Positions 251 through 12,135 are shown, counted from the first letter of the stretch. The stretch is 12,249 nucleotides of DNA from Candidatus Thorarchaeota archaeon (GCA_003345555.1 PRDJ01000058.1:1-12249); one strand, 5' to 3'. Numbers and translations: made by a program. The notes: generated by a model not told the origin, from the letters alone.

Positions 251-267
251 GAGATTCAGCGAATCTC
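251..267. terminator. Perfect 7-bp inverted repeat overlapping the stop codon of the propeller gene
   Basis: GAGATTC (251-257) agc GAATCTC (261-267). The - strand TGA stop is at 266-268. Confidence 0.3.
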
Positions 268-1918
268 AGCGGGGATTCCTTCTCTTCATGAGCATTACCG
301 CCACAATAACAATGGCAGCTATTGCCACTCCTACTCCGCCCATTATGATGGTCAAGGGGGTTGTCGTCGCTGTCGTTGCGCTCGGACTGTTTGAGACTCC
401 TCCGTAGAGGTTCAGGTCGTCGTGGGCTTGCACTGCAAACCAGTACTCGGTTGCTGAAGTCAAGCCTGAGACCATGTGGGTCTCCATGGTACAATTCCTT
501 GCTGGTGTCCAAGACTGTGGGTAAGTTGTCGCTGAGTTCCAGTTGGCATCTGTTATTGGTCCCGACGTGGAGTACTTGACCATGTAGCCTGTGGCATTAC
601 CTCTCATCCAATTGTCTCCCGGTGCAGTCCATGTCAATACGATGGAGTCGCTCGTGGGACTCCCTGCACTCAGATCGCTTATTGTTGAAGGAGGCGTCGC
701 GTCGCCGGTTTTCACTAGCCAGAACTCATTCTGTCCAGCGCCAAAGGAATTAGTGGCTCCTGCTATGACATATCCCCCGTCAGAAGTCTCTTGAACGGAT
801 TCCGCCGACTCATAGCCACTTCCTCCGTATGTCTTGCCCCATTGCTGGTTACCTGACGGGTCAGTCTTCACAAGCCAGAAGTCACCGCTGCCAGCGTCAT
901 AGTGTGCGATTCCAGCTATGATATATCCGCCTTCGGAAGTCTGGCGAACGGAATACGCCCACTCATCGATGGTTCCTCCGTATGTCTTGTTCCATTGCTG
1001 GTTACCTGACGAGTCAGTCTTGACGAGCCAGAAGTCAGCCCCACCAGCGCCAAAGGATTTTGTTGACCCTGCTATCATGTATCCGCCGTCCGAAGTCTGT
1101 TGAGCGGAATACACCCAATCATCAGCGGTTCCACCGCATGTCTTGCTCCATTGCTGTTTTCCCGATGAGTCGGTCTTCACGAGCCAGAAGTCACCTCCGC
1201 CAGCGCCAAAGGAATCTGTGGTTCCTGCCATGATGTATCCGCCGTCAGGAGTCTGCTGAACGGAATGCGCCCGGTCATAATCTGTTCCTCCGTATGTCTT
1301 GTTCCACTGCTGTTTTCCCGACGAGTCGGTCTTCACGAGCCAGAAGTCACCCCCGCCTGCGCCAGAGAAATCTGCGGTTCCTGCTATGACATATCCGGCG
1401 TCGGAAGTCTGCCTAACGGAATATGCCAACTCATAGCCACTTCCTCCGTATGTCTTGTTCCACTGCTGTTCACCTGATGAGTCGGTCTTCACGAGCCAGA
1501 AGTCATCTTGGCCCGCGCCAAAGGAGTATGTGGCTCCCCCTATGATGTATCCGCCATCGGAAGTCTGTTGAACAGAATACGCCCAGTCATAATCCGTTCC
1601 TCCGTATGTCTTGTTCCATTGCTGTTTTCCTGACGAGTCGGTCTTCACAAGCCACATATCCTGTAGGCCAGCGCCAAAGGAGTATGTGGTTCCTGCTATG
1701 ATGTATCCGCCGTCGGAAGTCTGCTGAACAGAATACGCCCAGTCACTGCTGGTTCCTCCATACAGCTTGTTCCACTCAGTTTGTGGCGGAGGTATTGTGG
1801 CGAGTGCTGTTCTTGGCATTGCTTGGGTTTGGCTGTTGTTTGCCGTCGGTACATAAAGTGGTGTCGCAATCGCGACGAGCATGGTCGCCACTACAACCAA
1901 CATGCACACCAATCTCAT
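266..1918 (-). CDS. Secreted/cell-surface protein: signal peptide, 7-bladed beta-propeller, fibronectin type III-like domain, C-terminal TM anchor
   Basis: Hydrophobic N-terminus (MRLVCMLVVVATMLVAIA). Seven 51-52 aa repeats (QQWNKTYGG...SVQQTSDGGYIIAG...DFWLVKTD). FN3-type segment (TPPSTISDL...LTWTAPGD...Y..KYS...L...TEYWFAVQAHD...SN). Thr-rich linker, TM helix LTIIMGGVGVAIAAIVIVAVML and basic tail KRRNPR. Seven N-X-S/T sequons. ATG at 1918 is preferred over the TTG at 1924 used by the ORF track. Confidence 0.9.
   Translation of the reverse strand: MRLVCMLVVVATMLVAIATPLYVPTANNSQTQAMPRTALATIPPPQTEWNKLYGGTSSDWAYSVQQTSDGGYIIAGTTYSFGAGLQDMWLVKTDSSGKQQWNKTYGGTDYDWAYSVQQTSDGGYIIGGATYSFGAGQDDFWLVKTDSSGEQQWNKTYGGSGYELAYSVRQTSDAGYVIAGTADFSGAGGGDFWLVKTDSSGKQQWNKTYGGTDYDRAHSVQQTPDGGYIMAGTTDSFGAGGGDFWLVKTDSSGKQQWSKTCGGTADDWVYSAQQTSDGGYMIAGSTKSFGAGGADFWLVKTDSSGNQQWNKTYGGTIDEWAYSVRQTSEGGYIIAGIAHYDAGSGDFWLVKTDPSGNQQWGKTYGGSGYESAESVQETSDGGYVIAGATNSFGAGQNEFWLVKTGDATPPSTISDLSAGSPTSDSIVLTWTAPGDNWMRGNATGYMVKYSTSGPITDANWNSATTYPQSWTPARNCTMETHMVSGLTSATEYWFAVQAHDDLNLYGGVSNSPSATTATTTPLTIIMGGVGVAIAAIVIVAVMLMKRRNPR
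708..1780 (-). repeat. Intragenic tandem repeat, 7 units of 156 bp (one of 153 bp)
   Basis: The anchor motif AC[G/A/T]AGCCA recurs at 714, 870, 1023, 1179, 1335, 1491 and 1647 (spacings 156, 153, 156, 156, 156, 156). 1587-1654 and 1275-1342 are identical at 64 of 68 nt. Confidence 0.95.
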
Positions 1919-1984
1919 CTGCAAATCTCATCCTACCCTTCCTTTCTATGATTGGAGACCCGTGGGGTCTGCCGTGGCATGAGA

Positions 1985-2144: not shown

Positions 2145-2699
2145 CTAGTCTTTTCTAAGAAACCCGATTACGTACATCGTCCCGAGAATCCCTACAATCA
2201 GTAAGACCCGTAGAAATGCTGTTAACAATGAGAATACTAGGTCATTGAATGTCCATGCTTGAAAGGCGAGGTTCCACCTACCAGTGGTCCACACGATGAT
2301 TAACCATACCAGTCCGACGAAGAAGGAGAAGCCATTGTCTCTCCGTGCTGATCTACCACGATGGGACCCTCCTTCGTATTCATTCCTCTCTTCTTCTGGC
2401 GACTTCTTGTACCACTGGAGATACACGACGGCCGCTGCCGGACCCGCCCAGCTCACCAGAAAGACAAGCTCCCATAGAATCAAAGTCAAGACAAATGTGA
2501 ATAGGTAGCCGACGGTCCATTCCCCAAACATGACTGGCACAAGTCCTGTCGTCTGTGCATCAGCCACAACTCGGAGGAATACGTAGATTGCCACGATAGC
2601 CGCTACTGCAATCGCTCCAATGAATGATAATGTCGCTTTCCCATGTCTTCTCAGGAACTTCTTCCACGCTTCATTGCTCGGCTCTTTGCTGCTTTCCAT
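2145..2699 (-). CDS. Hypothetical integral membrane protein (about 4 TM helices), 184 aa
   Basis: Four hydrophobic segments, a basic N-terminus (WKKFLRRH) and a charged loop (WYKKSPEEERNEYE...RGRSARR). Resembles an uncharacterised archaeal family, from memory only. Confidence 0.8.
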   Translation of the reverse strand: MESSKEPSNEAWKKFLRRHGKATLSFIGAIAVAAIVAIYVFLRVVADAQTTGLVPVMFGEWTVGYLFTFVLTLILWELVFLVSWAGPAAAVVYLQWYKKSPEEERNEYEGGSHRGRSARRDNGFSFFVGLVWLIIVWTTGRWNLAFQAWTFNDLVFSLLTAFLRVLLIVGILGTMYVIGFLRKD

Positions 2700-2836
2700 G
2701 GTTCATCCCTTCAACAAACCGCGAGGAACCCGTTTTGTAGTTTGCTTCCTACCATCTGAATCCACGTAGGCGCTCTGGACATGGCCTAGTGTCTTGTCTC
2801 TCCAACAGGTACTGCTTGAGCGTTTCTCGCAACACA

Positions 2837-2843
2837 TTTATCA
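2837..2843 (+). promoter_or_regulatory. TATA-like element for the nitroreductase operon
   Basis: TTTATCA about 50 nt upstream of ATG 2892. It is the most AT-rich hexamer in this spacer. Confidence 0.35.
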
Positions 2844-2866
2844 TCCATTTACTTCGATTGCCCTGT

Positions 2867-2886
2867 TCAACAGTCATGTTGAGGTG
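2867..2886 (+). promoter_or_regulatory. Inverted repeat TCAACA-N4-TGTTGA overlapping the RBS GAGGTG
   Basis: TCAACA at 2867-2872, TGTTGA at 2877-2882, GAGGTG at 2881-2886, ATG at 2892. Confidence 0.45.
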
Positions 2887-2891
2887 TATCA

Positions 2892-3707
2892 ATGGCTTCA
2901 CGAGGTTCTAAGGTAAAGCCGGCAGGCCCGGCGCCTACCGCTGAGAAACCAAAGATCGCAGAACAGCCCAAAGCCAAGGCCGAACCAGAGGCAAAAGGCC
3001 AGGTGCTACAGCAGCTGCAGTCTTTGAAACTCATACGGGAACGACGCTCGATTAGGGAGTTCACCGGCGAGAAAATCCCGGACGAACACATTGAGATGAT
3101 TCTTGAAGCAGCGCGTCATGCGCCCAGCCCCGAGAACATGCTCATGGTCCGGTTTGTTGTAATCAGGGACGACCAAGAGACAAAGGTGTTCCTTGCTGAC
3201 ATTGCTCAGGAGATGGCTCGACAGGCCTTCGGCGGAGCACCATTCGAGCTGACCAGCGGCCGGCTTTGGTACATTTCAGACCCGTACAGGGCGAGCCAGT
3301 ATGCCAAGCTGAGAGATGGCGACCTCTTCAGATATCCAGAGAAGAGTGACACAGTCATAATAGTCTGTGCCAGCGAAATGTGGCATGATGCAGCCTATCA
3401 GTATCCGAACGAGCTCTTCGGCTCTGTAGTAGCTGGAATGGCAATCATGAACATGTGGCTAGTGGCTACTGAGCTTGGATATGGCTGCGGATATGAGGCG
3501 CTGGTTTGTTCCGACCCCCGCCATGCCGAGCTCATAAGAGACAGGTTGGGAATACCCCCAATTTGGGCGCCGCTTACAGCTTTTTGCATTGGCAAGAAGA
3601 TCAGGACTCGCGAACTCGGTCCGAGCAGGCCTCCACTTGAGGGTCTGATGTATCAAGAGCGGTGGGGCTTACCATACAAACGCCTAGCGTTCAGGCAGGA
3701 GAAGTGA
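2892..3707 (+). CDS. Nitroreductase-family (FMN-binding) oxidoreductase with atypical motif and low-complexity N-terminal extension, 271 aa
   Basis: IRERRSIREFT, ILEAARHAPSPEN, MAIMNMWLVATELGYG and FCIG...R are hallmark nitroreductase-fold motifs. About 37 aa of K/P/A/E-rich N-terminus precede the domain. Confidence 0.88.
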   Translation: MASRGSKVKPAGPAPTAEKPKIAEQPKAKAEPEAKGQVLQQLQSLKLIRERRSIREFTGEKIPDEHIEMILEAARHAPSPENMLMVRFVVIRDDQETKVFLADIAQEMARQAFGGAPFELTSGRLWYISDPYRASQYAKLRDGDLFRYPEKSDTVIIVCASEMWHDAAYQYPNELFGSVVAGMAIMNMWLVATELGYGCGYEALVCSDPRHAELIRDRLGIPPIWAPLTAFCIGKKIRTRELGPSRPPLEGLMYQERWGLPYKRLAFRQEK

Positions 3708-3713
3708 TTCTGA

Positions 3714-3974
3714 ATGGAAGTAAGCTTTGACGAGAACATAATGAAGAAGCTCAAAGAGCTGTCCGAAGAAAGCGACCTGAGCCCCGAAGGTGTAATCGAA
3801 GTTGTGATGGCCCAATTCTGTGCGGAAAAGGGCGGCCGTGTCTACACCGGCCGTTGGTCCGGGGGTGAAGTGGCAGGAGAGAAGGGTATGCGCTATGTTG
3901 TGCAGTGGCCATTCAGACCCGGATTCTTGGAAGCTACAGGTGACCTTGTCAAGAAATGGAGGATGAAAGCGTAA
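3714..3974 (+). CDS. Small hypothetical protein, N-terminal ribbon-helix-helix-like segment, 86 aa
   Basis: 6 nt after the nitroreductase stop. MEVSFDENIMKKLKELSEESDLSPEGVIEVVMAQF fits the CopG/Arc RHH pattern (alternating strand, helix, turn, helix). The C-terminal region contains YVVQWPFRPGF. Confidence 0.8.
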   Translation: MEVSFDENIMKKLKELSEESDLSPEGVIEVVMAQFCAEKGGRVYTGRWSGGEVAGEKGMRYVVQWPFRPGFLEATGDLVKKWRMKA

Positions 3975-4246
3975 TGGCGAAGTTCAGAAAACACCCAAGT
4001 GGACAGTGGCCTTTCTATCCTAGATTGAAGGAAGGTGACATCCAGCACGAATACTGGACTAGCAAAAAGATGGTTCATCAGGCATTCATCAATGACCGCA
4101 AGGGCCGAATCGTTTTGTTGCTTGACGGGCCGAAGTACGACGCATTTCTAGACGTTGTGCGGAAGAAGAAAGGCAACATCTGGGCCAGTTCCGTCGATGC
4201 GGCAGTGCATGAGGCAGTTGACGAGTGGGTCGAGAAGGGGGCGTAG
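3974..4246 (+). CDS. Small hypothetical protein, C-terminal ribbon-helix-helix-like segment, 90 aa
   Basis: ATG overlaps the previous stop (TAATG, 3972-3976), so 3974 is preferred over 3956. N-terminal GQWPFYP. C-terminal RIVLLLDGPKYDAFLDVVRKKKG...VDAAVHEAVDEWVEK resembles archaeal RHH proteins. Confidence 0.8.
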   Translation: MAKFRKHPSGQWPFYPRLKEGDIQHEYWTSKKMVHQAFINDRKGRIVLLLDGPKYDAFLDVVRKKKGNIWASSVDAAVHEAVDEWVEKGA

Positions 4247-4249
4247 GAT

Positions 4250-4606
4250 GTGACACAGCTACAAGAGTTCTTTCAGTTCCTAGCTTCAAAAGTGAAGGAG
4301 AAAGATGACCTCAAGAAACTGCTGGCCGACTGGGTATTTCCAAACGACGGCAAAATCCTTCAGGTCTATACAGAGGAAGGTGCGCAATACATGGTTGTCA
4401 CAAAGGACAAGATCACTCTTCACGAAGGGACCTATCCCAGCCCTGATGTCATCTACAAAGCGAAGGCAGATACACTGCTCGGCATATTCACAGGACAGAT
4501 ACCCTTCAAGGACACCATGAAGGACGGCAGCCTCGAGGTAATCGGAAACGCGAATGAAAGCGATCCTCTTGCGAACCTGATTTTGGCCGCCATGATGGGT
4601 ATGTAG
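4250..4606 (+). CDS. SCP2 sterol/lipid-binding domain protein, 118 aa
   Basis: GTG start 3 nt after the previous stop. PSPDVIY...DTLLGIFTGQ...MKDGSLEVIGN matches the SCP2-fold C-terminal pattern (PD..i......f..i..G.......f..G.l.v.G). Confidence 0.82.
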   Translation: MTQLQEFFQFLASKVKEKDDLKKLLADWVFPNDGKILQVYTEEGAQYMVVTKDKITLHEGTYPSPDVIYKAKADTLLGIFTGQIPFKDTMKDGSLEVIGNANESDPLANLILAAMMGM

Positions 4607-4618
4607 GAGGAACCCGTT

Positions 4619-5743
4619 TTGGAAATCAAGAACATCGCTATCATCGGTTCAGGCCTCATGGGTTCAGGAATAGCCTATGTCTCCGCGTGGAACGGATACA
4701 ACGTCATTGTGGTGGATGTTGATCAGGCTGCGCTGGAAAGGGGTATGGAGCGACTTCGGTCTGACGTAATGACGGGCATTGAGAAAGGCAAGATGTCGAT
4801 GTCAGAGGCCGAAGGCCTCATGAGTCGACTCAAGAGCACCGTTAAGGTGGAGGACGCTGTCAAGGAAGCAGACTTGGTGGTCGAGGCCGTCTTCGAGAAC
4901 ATGGAAGTAAAGAAGAAGATCTTCGCCCAGATAGACAAGGCTGCTCCACCGCGCACGATTCTCGCAACAAACACCTCTTCCCTGAGCATTGATGAACTTG
5001 CCACGGCCACGAAGAGGCCCGAGAAGGTCATCGGTATGCACTACTTCAGCCCGGTTGCGTCCATGAAGCTTCTCGAGGTCGTTGTCGGCAAGAAGACTGC
5101 CGAAGAGACCGTACAGACAGCATTCGCCGTCGGAAAGAAGCAGGGCAAACTCCCAGTGAAAGCGAAGAACAGTCCTGGTTTCATTGTGAACCGGATACTG
5201 ATGCCCGTTCTCAGAGAGGCCATCTTTCTCTATGAGAAGGGAGTCGCGACCAAGGAAGAGATCGATACTGCTCTGACGACGATTGGCAAGTTCCAGGCAG
5301 GACCATTCACTCTTGGGGACTTTGTAGGTCTCGATATAGCCTATAACGCAATGAGCACTCTGTATAGAGAGCTCGGGGATTGCTTCAAGCCTCCTGAGAC
5401 GCTGAAGAAGCTGGTTGACGCTGGTTCACTGGGGATGAAATCGAAGAAGGGTTTCTACGCCTACGGTGGCGCAAAGTCCGAACCCGAGAAGCCCAAAGGG
5501 GCTGATCCCCAGATGCTGGTTAATCGAATCACGATTCCAGTGATTCGAGAGGCCATGATTCTAGTCGACCAAGGCATAGCCACCAAGGCTGACATAGATC
5601 AAGCTATGAAGCTAGGTGCAAGTTTCCCTGTTGGTCCCTTCGAAATGGCTGACAAGATTGGTCTTCCGAAGGTGAAGGCAGAGATTCAAAAGCTCCAGAA
5701 GGAACTTGGTCCCTGCTACAGCGTGCCCAAGATGCTGGGTTAG
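4619..5743 (+). CDS. 3-hydroxyacyl-CoA dehydrogenase (NAD-binding domain + two tandem C-terminal domains), 374 aa
   Basis: TTG start with SD GGAGG at 4606-4610. IGSGLMGSGIA Rossmann motif, VVEAVFEN, ATNTSSL, catalytic GMHYFSP...LLEVV. C-domain copies begin PGFIVNR (5174) and PQMLVNR (5507), each with ID...GPF...D..GL. Confidence 0.95.
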   Translation: MEIKNIAIIGSGLMGSGIAYVSAWNGYNVIVVDVDQAALERGMERLRSDVMTGIEKGKMSMSEAEGLMSRLKSTVKVEDAVKEADLVVEAVFENMEVKKKIFAQIDKAAPPRTILATNTSSLSIDELATATKRPEKVIGMHYFSPVASMKLLEVVVGKKTAEETVQTAFAVGKKQGKLPVKAKNSPGFIVNRILMPVLREAIFLYEKGVATKEEIDTALTTIGKFQAGPFTLGDFVGLDIAYNAMSTLYRELGDCFKPPETLKKLVDAGSLGMKSKKGFYAYGGAKSEPEKPKGADPQMLVNRITIPVIREAMILVDQGIATKADIDQAMKLGASFPVGPFEMADKIGLPKVKAEIQKLQKELGPCYSVPKMLG

Positions 5744-5755
5744 GATACAATCTAA

Positions 5756-5792
5756 GGTGGCAGAGCCCTGACTCTGCCATCATTCTCTTTCT
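5756..5792 (+). terminator. Hairpin + pyrimidine tract after the dehydrogenase
   Basis: TGGCAGAG (5758-5765) / CTCTGCCA (5772-5779), extendable to 10 bp, followed by TTCTCTTTCT (5783-5792). Confidence 0.6.
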
Positions 5793-5895
5793 GGTCCAGC
5801 GGACATTGTTGAGGACTGCAGTTTCGCCGAGCCAATGCGTCGTCTCATGGTCAGTCCGGGCAGTCATGGAACACTAGCGCTTGACTGGCTTTGTG

Positions 5896-5903
5896 TTTAT
5901 AAG
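5896..5903 (+). promoter_or_regulatory. TATA box for enoyl-CoA hydratase 1
   Basis: TTTATAAG is a good archaeal TATA consensus, about 48 nt upstream of ATG 5951. SD-like GGTGG at 5938-5942. Confidence 0.6.
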
Positions 5904-5950
5904 GTGGCTCTTCTCTCGTCAGCACAATTCCACTATAGGTGGTTGAAAAG

Positions 5951-6763
5951 ATGCCCGAATTCAAGACAATGCTGTACAGCAAAGAGGGCTCGTTCCTTTC
6001 CCCGGTGAAGAACGTAGCCGTTATCAAGTTCAACAGGCTTGACGCCTTGAACGCTATCAATGATCAATTCATTGCAGACCTAATGGCGGCTCTTGACGAG
6101 GCTGAGAAGGACAAGGACGTGAGGTCAGTGGTAATTGGCACTGCTCACGACAAGGTATTCTGCACGGGGGCAGACCTTAAGGTAGCTCAGACATTGCTTG
6201 CCACACCTGAAAAGGTGAGGGTACTGGTGGAGCAGGGCCAGAAGGCGATTGACAAAATTGCGACGCTGAGCAAACCGGTCATCGCTGCCATCCACGGTCT
6301 CTGCTTGGGCGGTGGAACTGAGATTGCACTCGCCTGTGATATCCGAATCGCAGATGAAGAAGCCAAGATTGGCACGCCCGAGGTTGGCCTTGGTCTCTTC
6401 CCAGCTTGGGGTGGCTGTGTAAGATTGCCCCGAGTAATCGGCTTGGGCAAAGCAATGGAACTGATCCTGACCGGAGGCCAAATCACTGCGCAAGAGGCTC
6501 TTGCGGCCGGTCTCGTCAGCAAGGTGACCAAAATTGATGAGCTGATGAGTCAGGCTATGTGGTACGGAGCCAAACTCGGAGGAAATGCTCCAATCGCAAT
6601 GAAGCTTGGCAAGAAGGCTGCCCACATGTCCTTTGAGGGAACCTACGCAGCCAACTTGAAGTATGAAGTCGATGCATGTGTCGAGTGCTTCAAGACAAAG
6701 GACCTCGGTGAAGGTATCGCTGCTCTCTTTGAGAAACGGCGAGGCAAGTTCGTAGGTGCATAG
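5951..6763 (+). CDS. Enoyl-CoA hydratase/isomerase (crotonase) family protein 1
   Basis: NR..ALNA, FCTGADL oxyanion motif, KPVIAAIHGLCLGGGTE, LACDIRIA, TPEVGLG, with both catalytic Glu present. ATG 5951 is preferred (SD spacing); GTG 5939 is the alternative. Confidence 0.95.
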   Translation: MPEFKTMLYSKEGSFLSPVKNVAVIKFNRLDALNAINDQFIADLMAALDEAEKDKDVRSVVIGTAHDKVFCTGADLKVAQTLLATPEKVRVLVEQGQKAIDKIATLSKPVIAAIHGLCLGGGTEIALACDIRIADEEAKIGTPEVGLGLFPAWGGCVRLPRVIGLGKAMELILTGGQITAQEALAAGLVSKVTKIDELMSQAMWYGAKLGGNAPIAMKLGKKAAHMSFEGTYAANLKYEVDACVECFKTKDLGEGIAALFEKRRGKFVGA

Positions 6764-7052: not shown

Positions 7053-8222
7053 ATGACTAGAAGAGTTGCAGTAGTGGCCGGTGGCCACGCCAAATTTGGG
7101 AAACGCTATGATGCAACATTGAGAGAGCTCTGCGCCGAGGCCTACAAGCCAATCTATGATGCCGGTATCACTCAGGACCGCATTGATGCGACAGTTCTCT
7201 CTTATGCTGCGTCACAGTTCACGGGTCAAGGTGCTGGATCTGCTCTGATGGCTGACTCCATAGGCCTGCAAGAAAAGCCTCATCTTAGATGCGAGTCTGC
7301 ATGCGCAACGGGTACAGCCTCTATCCGGGCAGCATACGGTATGGTGGCCTCAGGACTGTATGATGTTATGCTTGTACTTGGAGCTGAGCAGATGAACAGA
7401 GTATCATCTGCGACGGCAACTGAGTACATGTCGCGCGCTGGAGACATGCGTTGGGAGTATCCATTTGGCATATCCTTTCCGGCATTCTATGCGTTGCTAG
7501 CTTCACGATACATGGCTGAATACAAGATGCCACATGACGTACTCGCCAAGATTTCCGTGAAGTCTCACCACTATGGTGCACAGAACCCGAAAGCCCATCT
7601 GCCCAAGGAGGTAACCTTTGAGGAGGCAAACAATGCAGTCCCGATAGCCAGACCATTGAATCTGTATGACTGCAGCCTGATCACAGATGGCGCGGCCGCA
7701 GTTGTGCTTGTTGCCGAGCCGCGTGTCAAAGAGTTCACTGATCAACCCATGTGGATCAAGGGACTAGGAGCTGGCGCATCAGAAATGATGATTCAGGATC
7801 GTCCAAGTCTGACATCCATACCTGGGGCAAAGAGGGCTGCTGCCGCCGCGTACAAGATGGCAGGTCTTCAGCCAAAGGACATCAACATGGCCGAGGTACA
7901 TGACTGCTTCTCGATTGCAGAGCTGGTCGCTTACGAGGATCTTGGGTTCGCGCAACCCGGCAAGGGCAGAGAGCTCATCGAGAATAAGGAAGTGTATCAC
8001 ACGGGACGGATACCTGTCAACTGTGACGGTGGTCTCAAGAGCAAGGGCCATCCTCTGGGTGCCACGGGAGTCTCAATGACTTACGAAGTCATGGCTCAGA
8101 TGAGAGGAAAGGCCGACAAGCCTTCGAGGCAGATCAAGAATGTGAAGTACGGCCTCGTACACAATGTAGGTCAGAGCGGACAGTTTGTGAACGTAATCAT
8201 CTACGAGAGAGGTTGGTCGTAA
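7053..8222 (+). CDS. Thiolase (archaeal/SCP2-type acetyl-CoA C-acyltransferase), 389 aa
   Basis: SD GGAGG at 7041-7045. Nucleophile motif CESACATG, plus DCSLITDGAAA, EVHDCF, GGLKSKGHPLGATG and HNVG. HDCF in place of NEAF marks the SCP2/archaeal type. Confidence 0.95.
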   Translation: MTRRVAVVAGGHAKFGKRYDATLRELCAEAYKPIYDAGITQDRIDATVLSYAASQFTGQGAGSALMADSIGLQEKPHLRCESACATGTASIRAAYGMVASGLYDVMLVLGAEQMNRVSSATATEYMSRAGDMRWEYPFGISFPAFYALLASRYMAEYKMPHDVLAKISVKSHHYGAQNPKAHLPKEVTFEEANNAVPIARPLNLYDCSLITDGAAAVVLVAEPRVKEFTDQPMWIKGLGAGASEMMIQDRPSLTSIPGAKRAAAAAYKMAGLQPKDINMAEVHDCFSIAELVAYEDLGFAQPGKGRELIENKEVYHTGRIPVNCDGGLKSKGHPLGATGVSMTYEVMAQMRGKADKPSRQIKNVKYGLVHNVGQSGQFVNVIIYERGWS

Positions 8223-8638
8223 TGGCAACTGAGCATGAAATCTACTTGGGTTATTCAACGGACAAGGCAGTTACCCCGTTCTTCAAGCAATTCCTTGAGT
8301 CTCTCGAGAAGAACAAGCTGATGAAGGGCGTCTGCCCTAAGTGCAAGAAGGAATACCTTCCGCCAAGGCAGTATTGCCAGAAGGACCTGACTGAATGCCA
8401 GCTGGTAGAATTCACTGAGCGCGAAGCAAAGCTCTATTCTTTCGTTATAGTTGACTTTGCTCCGGAGAGCATGGCCTCTCGCGCGCCCTATGTCGTTGCC
8501 ATTGGAGAGTTTCCGTCCGGTCGAAGGCTCACTGCACATATTACCAACTTGACGAGCGAGCCCCAGGTTGGCATGAAACTGAAACTCGGTTTCGAGCGCG
8601 TCTCAGATAAGATGGTCACGTATAAGTGGCAAGTCTAG
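8222..8638 (+). CDS. DUF35-type Zn-ribbon + OB-fold protein (thiolase partner)
   Basis: ATG overlaps the thiolase stop (TAATG, 8220-8224). CPKC...PPRQYCQKD rubredoxin-like ribbon, then LYSF..V..AP...PYVVAIGE OB-fold. Confidence 0.92.
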   Translation: MATEHEIYLGYSTDKAVTPFFKQFLESLEKNKLMKGVCPKCKKEYLPPRQYCQKDLTECQLVEFTEREAKLYSFVIVDFAPESMASRAPYVVAIGEFPSGRRLTAHITNLTSEPQVGMKLKLGFERVSDKMVTYKWQV

Positions 8639-8818: not shown

Positions 8819-9607
8819 ATGTCATCCGAACAAGACGTTCTATACCAAGCGGCTGAGGGCGTTGCGACAATAACCATCAATCGCCCAAAGAAGCTTAACG
8901 CGCTGAACTTGGCTGTAATCAAAACAATGAGGGGATTCTTCCAGCAGGCAGAAGAGGACCAGTCCGTCAGAGTTGTCATCCTCACAAGTGCCGAGGACAA
9001 GGCCTTTGCTGCTGGTGCGGACATCACGGAGTTCAAAGATAGGAACTCTAACACTGTCAGACCACTCGTGGAGAGCGGTCAGGAACTCTGCAGGTACATT
9101 GAATCAATGAGCAAACCTGTCATTGCTTCAGTGAATGGATTTGCACTGGGCGGGGGTTGTGAGATAGCGATGGCCTGTGATATCAGGTACGCATCAGCGA
9201 ATGCAAGATTCGGGCAACCCGAGATCAACCTCGGAATCATTCCTGGGTACGGAGGATCTGCTCGACTTCCAAGACTCGTGGGGCTCGGCATCGCCAAGGA
9301 GATGATATACACGGGTGACCAAATCAAAGCCGATGAAGCTCTCCGAATAGGACTGGTCAACAAGGTCTTTGATACGGTTGAAACACTCAGGGCTGAGACC
9401 CTGAAACTGGCAAAGACATTGGTGACAAAACCTGGCGTGGCGATTAGGCTCGCGAAGCAGTCATTGAACAAGGCATGGGAACTGCCCTTGGGGCAGAACC
9501 TGAAGTTCGAGACTGATGTATTCAGGCAGACCTTCGACACCAAGGATAAGGTCGAAGGAGTGGATGCATTCTTATCGAAGCGTCCTGCTAAGTTCTCTCA
9601 CAGGTAG
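8819..9607 (+). CDS. Enoyl-CoA hydratase (crotonase-like) 2, 262 aa
   Basis: NRPKKLNAL, AFAAGADI, KPVIASVNGFALGGGCE, ACDIRYA, FGQPEINLGIIPGYGG, with both catalytic Glu present. Confidence 0.95.
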   Translation: MSSEQDVLYQAAEGVATITINRPKKLNALNLAVIKTMRGFFQQAEEDQSVRVVILTSAEDKAFAAGADITEFKDRNSNTVRPLVESGQELCRYIESMSKPVIASVNGFALGGGCEIAMACDIRYASANARFGQPEINLGIIPGYGGSARLPRLVGLGIAKEMIYTGDQIKADEALRIGLVNKVFDTVETLRAETLKLAKTLVTKPGVAIRLAKQSLNKAWELPLGQNLKFETDVFRQTFDTKDKVEGVDAFLSKRPAKFSHR

Positions 9608-9613
9608 AAATCA

Positions 9614-9634
9614 AGGCGAGGTTCTCCCTCGCCT
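9614..9634. terminator. Hairpin filling the gap between convergent genes, possibly bidirectional
   Basis: AGGCGAGG (9614-9621) / CCTCGCCT (9627-9634) is a perfect 8-bp stem between the + stop (9605-9607) and the - stop (9635-9637). Confidence 0.6.
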
Positions 9635-10570
9635 CTATCTACTGAGGATAATCTTGTCATCTTCGATTGTGATGCGTCCCCGTTTCACGAGTCTATCAAG
9701 ATGCTTTTGCACCATGAACTCTTCGAAGATGTAGTAGATAGGGTGAGGGAACTCGGCGTATATCGTTGGGTGCATAGCGAGCTTCTCCAAGCTCTCAAGA
9801 CCGCTGCGCACTAGCCCTAGTATTATCTCATCACGCTTCTCGAAGGCTGCCAGAAATTCCGCCAGCCTTCCCTGAACGTTATCCGTCACCGGGTTCAACA
9901 GGTGACTGCTTATGCACGTTCTTGGTGATAGCTCCATTATCTTCCTGATAGAAGACTCAAACTGTTCGATGTCACTCACGACATTGCCGTACCATGGACC
10001 GAACCTTGTCAAATCAATGTCCACCACTAACAGAGTGTTGTAGTCGTTTATGGCAAAGCAAGTGTGGTCGTGTGTATGTCCGGGCGTGTGTATGGGAATC
10101 AGTTCAGTCTCTCCACAGTCTATTGGTTTGTTGTCCGAGAAGGTACCCGTCACTCTGTAGTTCGAAGTTACGTGTGGTACCCAAGTGGTTATAGCGGAGA
10201 TCCAATCCGAGTACATAGGATTACCTTTGATTCCGTAATCCTGGACCATTCCTTTGAATGTACGAACTCCCCTCTCGGCCAGCGGGTGACACAGTAATTC
10301 GCATCCTGATTCCTCTTGGAGCTCGGCAGCGTGCCCTTTGTGGTCTATGTGAAAATGCGTTAGCACTATTCGGTCCAAGTCCTTTACAGAATGACCGAGG
10401 TCTGTCAGCGTCTTCACAATGTGGCTTTTGCTTGCTCCAGCATCAACTAAGGTGAGAATCTCATCGTCTATCAGGAGGGCGTTTGCCTCTGGGAATTTGG
10501 CTCTGTTTGCTCCTCGAATTAGATGAACGTGAGGCTGCAGCTCCAAGTGAACAGGGTAATCTTCTGACAT
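9635..10570 (-). CDS. MBL-fold metallo-hydrolase with probable C-terminal winged helix, 311 aa
   Basis: LVDAG, THFHIDH (HxHxDH), HTPGHTHDH, D(IDLTRFGPWYG) and SSH metal ligands. C-terminal MVQKHLDRLVKRGRI resembles LACTB2-type wHTH. Confidence 0.92.
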   Translation of the reverse strand: MSEDYPVHLELQPHVHLIRGANRAKFPEANALLIDDEILTLVDAGASKSHIVKTLTDLGHSVKDLDRIVLTHFHIDHKGHAAELQEESGCELLCHPLAERGVRTFKGMVQDYGIKGNPMYSDWISAITTWVPHVTSNYRVTGTFSDNKPIDCGETELIPIHTPGHTHDHTCFAINDYNTLLVVDIDLTRFGPWYGNVVSDIEQFESSIRKIMELSPRTCISSHLLNPVTDNVQGRLAEFLAAFEKRDEIILGLVRSGLESLEKLAMHPTIYAEFPHPIYYIFEEFMVQKHLDRLVKRGRITIEDDKIILSR

Positions 10571-10677
10571 TCCGTGTAGCCTGAGTCGGATGCTTTGACC
10601 AGATAACTCTCTCCGTCGGATACTTCATATTGTCGATTTGTGCTTCCGTACTGCAGTATTGCCGAATGGTGAGAACC

Positions 10678-12135
10678 ATGAGCCAGCGCGTCTTTGCAGT
10701 ATTTGACATAGGCACAACAGGTGCGAGATCGTGTCTTATTGACGAGGAAGGCCGAGAGCTAAGCAAGGCCTATGAAGAGTATCCTCCGACGCCTCGTGAG
10801 CTGAAGACGCATGAGCAATTGGCTGAGACCTATTGGCGGACCGCTGTCAACACGATGCAGAGGGCATTGGCTGGTCATACATCGGGAGCGCAAGCTGTAG
10901 TGGCCGTTGTGTTGTCCACGACCAGAGATTGCGTGACTCCTATTGACAGAAGGGGACAACCTCTCGCACCGACAGTGACATGGCTTGACAACAGGTCTAC
11001 TGCGAAGGGCAAGGCGATGGCAAAGGAAATCGGCCCCCGAAAAAGCGTAAACAAGATGATGTGGTTCTTGGAGAACAAACCGGATCTCTTTAAGAGAGCC
11101 TACAAGTTCGTGACTCTTGATGCCTTTCTTAATTATCGCCTCTGCGGTGCGATGGTCACTGAACCAGCTAATGCCAGATTCGGACCTATTGACCACGAGA
11201 CACTGAAATGGTCCCAAGAGATTTGTCAGGCAACCGGAATTCCTATGGATAAGCTGGCGGATATCGTCTCTCCGAGTTCAACGATTGGCGAGGTGAGCGC
11301 CGAAGCTGCCAAAGCGACCGGTTTGAGAAAAGGTACAATCGTAATCATGGGCAGCGGTGACCAGCAATGTTCGGCACTTGGAACTGGAACTATCAAGTCC
11401 GGCATAGTCAAGGCGACGACAGGTACTGGCACGTTCGTCATCACGCATACGGATTCGCACGTTGAAGATCCGTATGTAATGTTCAGCAATCCATCCGCGA
11501 TACCGGGAAAATGGATACTGGAAGGGGTTCTTCCGGGCACTGGCATGGCATACAAGTGGTACAGGGATCAATACTGTGAGCACGAGACGGCAATCGCCGC
11601 CCAAACAAACAGGGACCCATATGAAGTCATTGAGGACTCTGCTAAGACCGTGCCAGCTGGTAGCGATGGTATTGTTGTCTTTCCGTTCTTTGCATATGGC
11701 AGGGGCATCATCGACGGCCTCAACTTTGGTCATACAAAGGCTCACTTGGCCCGGGCGATAATGGAGGCCAACGGGTATGGCATCAAGTTCTACATTGACG
11801 CAATGCAGGGTTTGCTTGACTTGGAGTTCGAGGAACTACGAATTGATGGAGGTGGAGCGAACTCCCCCTTGTGGCGGCAGATTCAGGCTGATTGTGCCAA
11901 TAAACCAGTTGTGCTCCCACGTTGTCGTGACTCCACAGCCATTGGGGCCGCCGTACTGGCAGCAGTAGGAACTGGCGTATTCAACTCATATGAAGAAGCG
12001 ATTGAGAATATGTTTCACATAGAAGAGCGAAGGGAGCCTATCCCTGAAAATGTGGCAATCTATGAGCAACGGTACGGTACCTTCAACAAGATTCTCATGG
12101 CTGAGATGGCCGGGATACTTGAGGCCATAAGCTAG
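10678..12135 (+). CDS. FGGY-family carbohydrate/polyol kinase, substrate unknown
   Basis: DIGTTG, W.D.R, GDQQCSALG, TTGTG.F, RAIMEA, DGGGANSPLWRQIQAD and TAIGAA motifs. ATG 10678 with SD GGTGAG at 10668-10673 is preferred over TTG 10630. Confidence 0.92.
   Translation: MSQRVFAVFDIGTTGARSCLIDEEGRELSKAYEEYPPTPRELKTHEQLAETYWRTAVNTMQRALAGHTSGAQAVVAVVLSTTRDCVTPIDRRGQPLAPTVTWLDNRSTAKGKAMAKEIGPRKSVNKMMWFLENKPDLFKRAYKFVTLDAFLNYRLCGAMVTEPANARFGPIDHETLKWSQEICQATGIPMDKLADIVSPSSTIGEVSAEAAKATGLRKGTIVIMGSGDQQCSALGTGTIKSGIVKATTGTGTFVITHTDSHVEDPYVMFSNPSAIPGKWILEGVLPGTGMAYKWYRDQYCEHETAIAAQTNRDPYEVIEDSAKTVPAGSDGIVVFPFFAYGRGIIDGLNFGHTKAHLARAIMEANGYGIKFYIDAMQGLLDLEFEELRIDGGGANSPLWRQIQADCANKPVVLPRCRDSTAIGAAVLAAVGTGVFNSYEEAIENMFHIEERREPIPENVAIYEQRYGTFNKILMAEMAGILEAIS

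Follow-up and report, generated by a model that had tools for sequence, protein, structure and literature searches.

In the cyclodipeptide oxidase AlbA/AlbB of Streptomyces noursei, a flavin mononucleotide (FMN) protein of the nitroreductase fold is encoded beside a small protein (~100 aa in AlbB); the two are obligate partners, a dimer of the small subunit supplies residues to the flavin site, and the enzyme carries out C-alpha/C-beta dehydrogenation beside a carbonyl (PMC11055893). AlbA2/AlbB2, in which residues of AlbB stand at the FMN site, is likewise an obligate enzyme of nitroreductase-fold and small subunits and performs alpha,beta-dehydrogenation (PMC11055893). FbiB's C-terminal domain has the same fold, and with FMNH2 it reduces a carbon-carbon double bond (C=C) conjugated to a carboxylate (PMC6450877). 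In the archaeal systems for beta-oxidation and fatty-acid synthesis described for S. acidocaldarius, thiolase/DUF35 acts on CoA esters together with a hydratase and a ketoacyl reductase or 3-hydroxyacyl-CoA dehydrogenase (HAD); several thiolase/DUF35 pairs are present in Asgard genomes, and the fourth (C=C) step comes from a separate enzyme, which is a medium-chain dehydrogenase/reductase (MDR)-type NADPH enoyl-CoA reductase or an acyl-CoA dehydrogenase (ACAD) with electron-transfer flavoprotein (ETF) (bioRxiv 10.1101/2024.07.05.601840). Here we describe a locus at positions 2892-5743 of a 12,249-bp contig of Candidatus Thorarchaeota archaeon (PRDJ01000058.1, GCA_003345555.1; contig C58, the whole of which is called the window), where genes for a nitroreductase-fold FMN protein (NR), two small proteins (sA and sB), an SCP2-type lipid-binding protein and a HAD follow one another.

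Judged by its design, a heteromeric enzyme built on the nitroreductase fold, AlbA/AlbB is the nearest known counterpart of NR-sA-sB-SCP2, although a complex is established for AlbA/AlbB and is deduced from the genes for our locus. AlbB is a four-helix-bundle homodimer, whereas sA and sB would be a pair of the ribbon-helix-helix (RHH) type; our model of an sA-sB fusion has helix pairs and a beta-hairpin with RHH matches, and is not a CDOB four-helix bundle. AlbA/AlbB works without an SCP2, acts on cyclic dipeptides in secondary metabolism, carries covalent FMN and forms filaments (PMC11055893). The cassette thus differs in having another partner fold, two distinct and fusible partners, and an added SCP2. 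Because FbiB's C-terminal domain reduces a conjugated C=C, enoate-type reduction is within the repertoire of the nitroreductase fold, but that domain, unlike NR, is fused to a CofE ligase, uses a soluble cofactor substrate and has neither small partners nor an SCP2. The described archaeal fatty-acid systems, in turn, lack a nitroreductase-fold protein, an RHH pair and an SCP2.

The five open reading frames (ORFs) run head to tail on the + strand with spacings of 6, -1, 3 and 12 nt, exactly the tight coupling that the first-pass annotation of this DNA had described, and NR through HAD form a single coupled expression unit. The sB start is an ATG within a longer ORF listed from 3956, and it overlaps the sA stop as TAATG. 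That annotation had also failed to recognize the gene combination, and the NR-sA-sB-SCP2 cassette is indeed undescribed: there is nothing on it in Pfam, NCBIfam, PADLOC or the searchable literature. In that literature, covering Thorarchaeota, Asgard, SCP2 and acyl-CoA contexts, no paper links a nitroreductase to these archaeal clusters, and what there is on Thorarchaeota and nitroreductases consists of F420 papers, none treating the cassette.

To define the unit across genomes, we scanned species-representative genomes with an sB profile and read the flanks by a tblastn survey, which gave 69 loci; these belong to Thorarchaeota, to Asgard archaea of the Hermod type and, in a few cases, to Bathyarchaeia. 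Wherever flanks were present, NR, sA, sB and SCP2 had identical order and strand, with median gaps of 5, 0 and 5 nt; chance falls far short of explaining an arrangement that is found again in 69 independent public loci. The evolutionary unit is therefore four genes instead of the five first proposed, since NR and the small genes keep their link to SCP2 whereas HAD is a frequent yet dispensable neighbor, unlinked in part of the genomes. Enoyl-CoA hydratase (ECH), thiolase and DUF35 follow the cassette in this order in 32 of the 69 loci, Bathyarchaeia included, and in a Hodarchaeales contig; with HAD ahead of them, they lie downstream in most Thorarchaeota loci, in the Hodarchaeales contig, in Bathyarchaeia and in genome G397. 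HAD is not beside the cassette in 13 Hermod-type loci, in the complete Thorarchaeota chromosome CP070658 and in several paralogous copies. In the 13 Hermod-type loci the four genes stand alone; the nearest acyl-CoA genes there are a ligase and an ACAD, each at a distance of ~3 kb, on the upstream and the downstream side, respectively.

Co-inheritance of the four genes is strict. Of 400 Asgard genomes, 110 carry sB and 114 a member of the NR subfamily (E <= 1e-40), and the single-gene mismatches were mostly genes cut at contig ends. In the window's own family (f1) the counts were 73 for sB and 76 for NR among 85 genomes, and both genes were found in 17 of 19 (f14), 6 of 6 (f16) and 3 of 3 (f17) genomes of other families; overall, both are near-universal in the window's family and four others. 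Neither gene occurred in any of the 135 genomes of the largest Asgard family (f22), and several other families also had zero. Where a genome has two to four paralogous cassettes, each NR lies beside its own sB, as on contigs C41, C28, C132 and C13 of G119.

Close relatives of sA and sB in word-indexed searches came only from Asgard metagenome-assembled genomes (MAGs), at 60-94% identity (32 for sA, all Asgard; 48 for sB). Cassette neighborhoods were also seen in Hermodarchaeota, the Hodarchaeales contig, other 'Promethearchaeota' and Bathyarchaeia, the small proteins of the last being merely 31-46% identical to those of the window. When a profile was run exhaustively against 1.84 billion representative proteins, the sB family came to only 51 clusters, including a distant subfamily of ~80 aa that starts at a W-[PL]-G-x-P motif; these members likewise lie within NR-sA-sB-SCP2 cassettes and are extra paralogous copies in Asgard genomes, with locus L098 being 97-100% identical to L088. 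Bathyarchaeia rarely have the cassette, and its distribution among them is patchy: clear matches came from ~7 of 301 sampled genomes (among the carriers are G400, G447, G592, G607 and G622), where it comes with the whole HAD-ECH-thiolase-DUF35 block. This rarity suggests transfer between Asgard archaea and Bathyarchaeia, and movement of the whole cluster would be compatible with the pattern.

NR matches PF00881 over residues 48-235 (89.8 bits, cut-off 23.5), behind a low-complexity N-terminal extension (~residues 1-40), and is single copy in the window's genome. In the nitroreductase superfamily, an R-x-x-S-x-R motif at the start of the fold binds the FMN phosphate; in NR, R51, R52, S53 and R55 (RRSxR) are invariant among 45 relatives, within a total of 51 invariant columns. 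The nitroreductase had at first been called atypical, a description that does not hold for the cofactor site, where RRSxR is invariant and the protein resembles the Geobacter structures 4dn2 and 4g8s. An AlphaFold 2 (AF2) model of NR (predicted local distance difference test, pLDDT, 74) matched 194 PDB chains in Foldseek at E <= 1e-3, the best being 4dn2 (E 8.6e-11, target template-modeling score, TM, 0.72). The Geobacter proteins are the closest solved relatives in both sequence (phmmer E 1.5e-14) and structure, followed by the FbiB C-terminal domain (4xoq, Foldseek E 1.4e-10, ~23% identity), BluB and iodotyrosine deiodinase. They share APSxxNM..RF and GPSR.PL motifs with NR but have ~190-210 aa and lack the central insertion and the C-terminal ERWGxPYxRLAFR tail; both are structural-genomics proteins of unassigned function with no partner genes known. 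The C-terminal tail of NR (G-P-S-R-x-P-L-E-G ... E-R-W-G-x-P-Y-x-R-L-A-F-R) is highly conserved yet poorly ordered in the monomer model, and an interface would fit this behavior. In loci L102 (G125:C41) and L107 (G128:C2) and in protein P0166, two NR copies are fused in tandem in one frame of 470-490 aa; these cassettes still have sB and SCP2, and the fusion is compatible with a covalent form of what would usually be a homodimer.

The same comparisons raise the idea that NR is the missing archaeal dehydro-F420-0 reductase, an enzyme given as unknown in the F420 paper (PMC6450877), or a BluB-like cofactor enzyme, and that its lipid neighbors are incidental. The best NCBIfam scores of NR are indeed to BluB (TIGR02476, 56.3 bits) and the FbiB C-terminal domain (TIGR03553, 46.1 bits), FbiB structures rank among the top Foldseek matches, the window's genome holds two CofE-like genes, and cobalamin-salvage genes precede one paralogous cassette. 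The scores fall far under their cut-offs (150 and 249.55), however, the CofE-like genes are on other contigs away from NR, CofD was not found in a genome that is 93% complete, and an obligate link to SCP2 with recurrent acyl-CoA neighbors is ill-suited to a soluble cofactor pathway; we regard this explanation as very improbable. As a separate observation, the CofE-like (PF01996) genes lie at G000:C67:28891-29535 and G000:C11:3220-3867.

The fourth gene is, from its sequence matches, a genuine SCP2. The window protein scores 23.2 bits on PF02036 (cut-off 21.3), 23 of 25 cassette homologues match this family (best E 3.9e-9), and their profile matches A. fulgidus AF_1534 (3cnu, E 2.2e-8) and 3bn8. 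SCP2 has a substrate-presenting role in eukaryotic peroxisomal enzymes. In the ubiquinone metabolon, soluble flavoenzymes receive their hydrophobic substrate from UbiJ, which is an SCP2 lipid binder, and UbiK, which is a small accessory protein. Both UbiJ/UbiK and the cassette pair an SCP2 protein with a small accessory protein, and we claim no sequence relation between them; the Ubi system is bacterial and involves other flavoenzyme families and a polyprenyl quinone substrate.

The two small proteins are less familiar. Neither reached a Pfam family threshold (sA scored 14 bits on RHH_3 against 21.6), NCBIfam gave nothing meaningful for sA, sB or SCP2, PADLOC gave nothing for any cassette protein, and an ESM Atlas feature search with sB returned only sub-0.9 matches to unrelated hypothetical proteins. 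A weak Pfam match to a FitA-like RHH was found for 5 of 60 family members (best E 4.9e-4). A single 175-aa ORF with a short S-G-G-K linker takes the place of separate sA and sB genes in 18 Thorarchaeota loci; the phylum survey found open sA-sB frames of 175-217 aa through most of one genus, and fused proteins make up 2 of the 51 sB clusters. The AF2 model of a natural fusion (pLDDT 80.8, predicted TM, pTM, 0.51) has two helices at the sA N-terminus, two at the sB C-terminus, a confident beta-hairpin with an invariant G-R-x-Y-x-G-x-W ... Q-W-P-F block, and a poorly defined stretch around a second W-P-F-Y-P. Because the strands are unpaired in this model, we argue for an sA-sB heterodimer from the fusion and the gene coupling instead.

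Foldseek found nothing in the PDB for the fused model at E <= 1e-3. Exhaustive structural alignment placed residues 1-41/1-43 on AmrZ and Arc (Z 4.5 and 4.1) and residues 126-175 on the RHH domains of NikR, RelB and PutA (Z 4.0-4.5), with DinJ also among the RHH matches, at root-mean-square deviations of 2.1-3.1 A (2-2.6 A for alignments over 41-45 residues) and with Z scores below the tool's certainty level; about half of the top 50 rows were RHH proteins. The label 'RHH-like' that these proteins had been given is thus reasonable yet unproven: the structural matches and the weak Pfam hits speak for it, and the absence of any RHH family above threshold speaks against it. The sA N-terminus and the sB C-terminus appear to share the beta-alpha-alpha topology of Arc, CopG, NikR, RelB and the PutA N-terminal domain, but they differ from these in their acidic modules (median net charge over 50 sequences of -5 for the RHH segment of sA and -1 for that of sB), their mirror-image order (N-terminal in sA, C-terminal in sB), their extra WPFxP segments, their mid-operon position and their fusion in some lineages. 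A conserved W-P-[FG]-x-P segment occurs in both proteins, and hhalign aligned the two profiles only over a 10-column QWPFxPxxxE motif (probability 11%, E 0.0028), so paralogy or circular permutation finds no support there beyond the motif. On the sA strand, the residues that face outward vary, with Asp/Glu the commonest, and the most conserved columns of sA and sB lie outside the RHH strands.

A pair of small genes that begins with an RHH and overlaps by 1 nt recalls type II toxin-antitoxin cassettes, and sA/sB could in principle be such a pair, or another selfish one, lodged within a metabolic operon. We find this hardly credible: no toxin family is matched in PADLOC or Pfam, the pair is never apart from NR and SCP2 where flanks are available, fusion in 18 loci would be intolerable for a toxin and its antitoxin, and the pair is vertically conserved at enzyme-like identity across the whole family.

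Instead, we tentatively propose, with somewhat less than even confidence, that the cassette encodes a multi-subunit FMN enzyme acting on an acyl or lipid substrate held by SCP2, perhaps by C=C redox chemistry. sA and sB would associate through their RHH halves and serve as a dedicated adaptor subunit of an NR dimer, not as a DNA-binding repressor, while the flavin would be offered its substrate, a hydrophobic acyl-CoA or lipid, by SCP2, which holds it. The reaction would be oxidation or reduction of a C=C on an acyl thioester, for which candidate activities are an enoyl- or dienoyl-CoA reductase or a specialized dehydrogenase that feeds or drains a beta-oxidation-type cycle. Among possible chemistries this one appears the most likely because HAD, ECH, thiolase/DUF35, acyl-CoA ligase and ACAD recur as neighbors, and C=C redox on an SCP2-held substrate is drawn from NR, the genuine SCP2, these neighbors and the AlbA/AlbB and FbiB precedents. 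What the data show is the gene coupling, strict co-inheritance of the four genes, the sA-sB fusion, the intact FMN motif, the SCP2 membership and the recurrent acyl-CoA neighbors; physical assembly with NR and SCP2 is our inference, as are the substrate and the reaction. The first-pass term 'lipid-redox' has to be qualified, as that chemistry is read from the neighbors only. A mid-operon position and translational coupling to the enzyme genes imply an enzyme-like stoichiometry for sA and sB. A complex prediction with two NR chains (L039, residues 20-253) and the sA-sB fusion scored 0.00 and, run without controls, gives no verdict.

Several points weigh against this proposal. The RHH fold overwhelmingly serves DNA binding, a basic RKGR arm is retained ahead of the strand in sB, and distant relatives have CopG-like R-V-T-I-T strands. 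The contact of sA/sB with NR or SCP2 is something we infer from sequence, and the fusion model leaves its RHH strands unpaired at a pTM of 0.51. NR has no characterized NCBIfam equivalog above cut-off. All cassette genomes tested contain ACADs and ETF, so no pathway gap calls for a new C=C enzyme, and several paralogous cassettes lie among unrelated genes (HypF, URO-D, anthranilate synthase, cobalamin salvage).

The first-pass annotation had offered the small proteins either as subunits or as a heteromeric regulator, and both alternatives survive as the two leading readings. We rank sA/sB as a subunit or adaptor, itself a tentative assignment, ahead of a heterodimeric RHH transcription factor that autoregulates the cassette, which we consider rather unlikely. 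Such a factor is what the best structural matches of both halves, RHH DNA-binding domains all, would predict, and the FitA-like Pfam hits, the RKGR arm and the RVTIT strands agree with it; strict linkage to NR and SCP2 would suit a dedicated autoregulator too. PutA is a flavoenzyme carrying an RHH regulator. In a PutA-like variant, the non-RHH segments might sense lipid-loaded SCP2 or reduced NR, upon which the DNA is released. Set against autoregulation are the mid-operon position and translational coupling to enzyme genes, the strongly acidic RHH segment of sA, the failure to match any RHH family above curated threshold, and conservation comparable to that of the enzymes (median identities within Thorarchaeota of 67% for sA and 71% for sB, next to 71% for HAD and 80% for NR), with the best-conserved columns off the RHH strands.

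The promoter region bears on the same choice. A TATA-like ACATTTATCA lies ~55 nt upstream of the NR ATG and a GAGGTG Shine-Dalgarno sequence 7 nt upstream; a matching element, TCTCGGAATACATTTATG, stands at an equal distance from the ATG in most Thorarchaeota relatives, and Hermod-type relatives have their own version, AGCTACCATTTAATA. An inverted repeat, TCAACA-GTCA-TGTTGA (2868-2886), abuts the Shine-Dalgarno sequence. Part of the Thorarchaeota have a conserved promoter and, close to where transcription is predicted to start, an inverted repeat, on which an autoregulator might act, but the strand residues of sA vary while the promoter is conserved. The repeat is retained in one Thorarchaeota subclade, with the stem kept or extended and a loop of 3-8 nt (CAACAAT-AGG-ATTGTTG in L039), which suits an RNA hairpin better than an operator. 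Its predicted fold is weak (-9.2 kcal/mol, z -1.06), and it may be a 5'-leader hairpin. A search for operators upstream of NR found only basal conservation of transcription factor B recognition element (BRE)/TATA type and this repeat, which we did not accept as an operator because its loop length varies and it is limited to one lineage.

Moreover, in each lineage the divergent position upstream is taken by some other regulator gene, a further point against autoregulation by sA/sB: Bathyarchaeia, Hodarchaeales and G397 have PadR there, and L016 has a TrmB-like gene. In Thorarchaeota there is a 46-aa canonical CopG-type RHH protein (PF01402), 85-100% identical over ~42 loci, whose gene runs opposite to NR and lies 0.4-6 kb upstream of it, although it is absent from the window's contig. 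In 8 loci its gene is directly divergent from the cassette promoter (~430 nt), and the protein is a candidate dedicated regulator of the operon.

A further possibility is that the cassette substitutes for ACAD and that these archaea have nothing else to catalyze the first step of beta-oxidation. HAD, ECH and thiolase/DUF35, without an ACAD, are present in the window and in most syntenic loci, and nitroreductase-fold enzymes are capable of alpha,beta-dehydrogenation (PMC11055893). The idea of NR as a stand-in for a missing ACAD fails genome-wide, however. The window's genome has 4 ACAD hits and ETF, ACADs were found in 5 of 5 other cassette genomes tested (1-12 in G397, G117, G115 and two Bathyarchaeia genomes), and in Hermod-type loci and L107 the cassette has an ACAD gene no more than 3-4 kb away. 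Because every genome tested has ACADs, the cassette does not replace a missing one, and we consider this role improbable. A more elaborate form of the flavoenzyme proposal is also doubtful in our view, if less so: NR2, a pseudo-symmetric RHH-derived sA/sB heterodimer and SCP2 would make up a new soluble flavoenzyme complex in which a DNA-binding fold has been recruited as a subunit. This complex would perform ACAD/ETF-independent C=C redox chemistry (enoyl-/dienoyl-CoA reduction or dehydrogenation) on long or branched acyl-CoA and complete an Asgard-specific beta-oxidation or reverse cycle, with SCP2 presenting the substrate as in peroxisomal enzymes.

Paralogous copies show other surroundings. 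In 8 loci (L035, L044, L045, L048, L049, L060, L067 and L070; ~14.1-16.1 kb each), a second NR paralogue (70-75% identical) immediately precedes a second HAD (~55% identical); neither the small genes nor SCP2 intervene, and all 8 genomes have a fused sA-sB in their main cassette. DUF35 and thiolase follow the cassette on contig C13 of G119. Downstream of a paralogous cassette, two genomes from a single Asgard family have a gene for a UbiA-family prenyltransferase; it was identified by Pfam at L097:8938-9948 and is presumed at L101:10478-11488 from an ORF of equal size at the same position. This arrangement hints that some cassette copies act on isoprenoid lipids instead of acyl-CoA.

The boundaries of the unit agree with the promoter and terminator-like hairpin first assigned to it: a conserved TATA-like box precedes NR, and a hairpin with a 10-bp stem follows HAD. 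The hairpin (-17.6 kcal/mol, z -1.88; 10 of 200 shuffles fold equally well) is the sole + strand terminator-like match within 2600-6100, and a bacterial sigma-70 promoter scan of the locus is uninformative for an archaeon. ECH has its own TATA-like GTTTATAAGG at 5895-5904, 35-45 nt before its start (5939), which suggests that its transcription is separate from the NR-to-HAD unit. The sequencing runs that contain window DNA are wetland metagenomes. An RNA library from a wetland yielded contigs over NR, the sA/sB junction, SCP2, HAD, ECH and the thiolase/DUF35 junction; they do not cover upstream positions 2000-2935, although a DNA run covers ~900 bp upstream of NR. Cover was judged from contigs only, so that uncovered parts (e.g., 3416-3880) carry no meaning, and the contigs are weak evidence that the unit is expressed in situ.

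The features of the locus are collected in the table. HAD carries both its NAD-binding (PF02737, E 1.1e-64) and C-terminal (PF00725, E 2.8e-47) domains and scores 380.8 bits on NF004474 in NCBIfam.

Table. Coordinates of the cassette, its neighbors and associated elements (window positions unless a locus is named).
Feature	Position	Strand	Remarks
Promoter and 5' leader	2836-2886	+	TATA-like ACATTTATCA, inverted repeat, Shine-Dalgarno GAGGTG
NR, nitroreductase-fold FMN protein	2892-3707	+	271 aa; PF00881
sA	3714-3974	+	86 aa; N-terminal RHH-like module, then conserved beta-hairpin and QWPFRPGF motif
sB	3974-4246	+	90 aa; N-terminal QWPFYP motif, C-terminal RHH-like module
SCP2-type lipid-binding protein	4250-4606	+	118 aa; GTG start; PF02036
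HAD, 3-hydroxyacyl-CoA dehydrogenase	4619-5743	+	374 aa; TTG start; last in coupled unit
Terminator-like hairpin with T-rich tail	5756-5781	+	10-bp stem
ECH, enoyl-CoA hydratase	5939-6763	+	Pfam; separate transcription unit
Thiolase	7053-8222	+	Pfam; beta-oxidation partner, transcription unit separate from NR-HAD
DUF35/ChsH2 OB-fold protein	8213-8638	+	Pfam; transcription unit separate from NR-HAD
46-aa PF01402 RHH gene	L003:6396-6536	-	also L020, L027, L033, L035, L042, L060, L067 and ~35 more loci

The window is the entire contig, and its source is a Thorarchaeota-type MAG of 2.28 Mb (93% complete). After thiolase/DUF35, positions 8819-12135 hold a second enoyl-CoA hydratase gene, a metallo-beta-lactamase-fold gene (- strand) and an FGGY-type carbohydrate kinase gene, a trio that is syntenic across many Thorarchaeota loci. 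At the other end of the contig, positions 266-1924 (- strand) encode a 552-aa protein of ~48-aa repeats (..YGG..D.AYSV.QTSDGGY..AG.....GAG..DFWLVKTDSSG.QQWNKT..) whose end looks, by eye, like a fibronectin-type segment with a membrane anchor at the C-terminus, so that a beta-propeller protein of the cell surface is probable.

Asgard archaea are the closest archaeal relatives of eukaryotes and are central to ideas on how eukaryotes acquired a lipid metabolism based on fatty acids. Their thiolase/DUF35, HAD and hydratase genes are routinely labeled 'beta-oxidation' without biochemistry, and the cassette, which heads that gene cluster in Thorarchaeota (with sB in 73 of 85 genomes of the family) and in other Asgard families, is an obvious missing piece. 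If it encodes an enzyme complex, it would represent a new heteromeric architecture for the nitroreductase superfamily, a use of the RHH fold outside DNA binding and a prokaryotic job for stand-alone SCP2 proteins. If sA and sB are a regulator, they would form an unusual mirror-image heterodimeric RHH inside its own target operon. On either reading, two orphan protein families gain a testable context.

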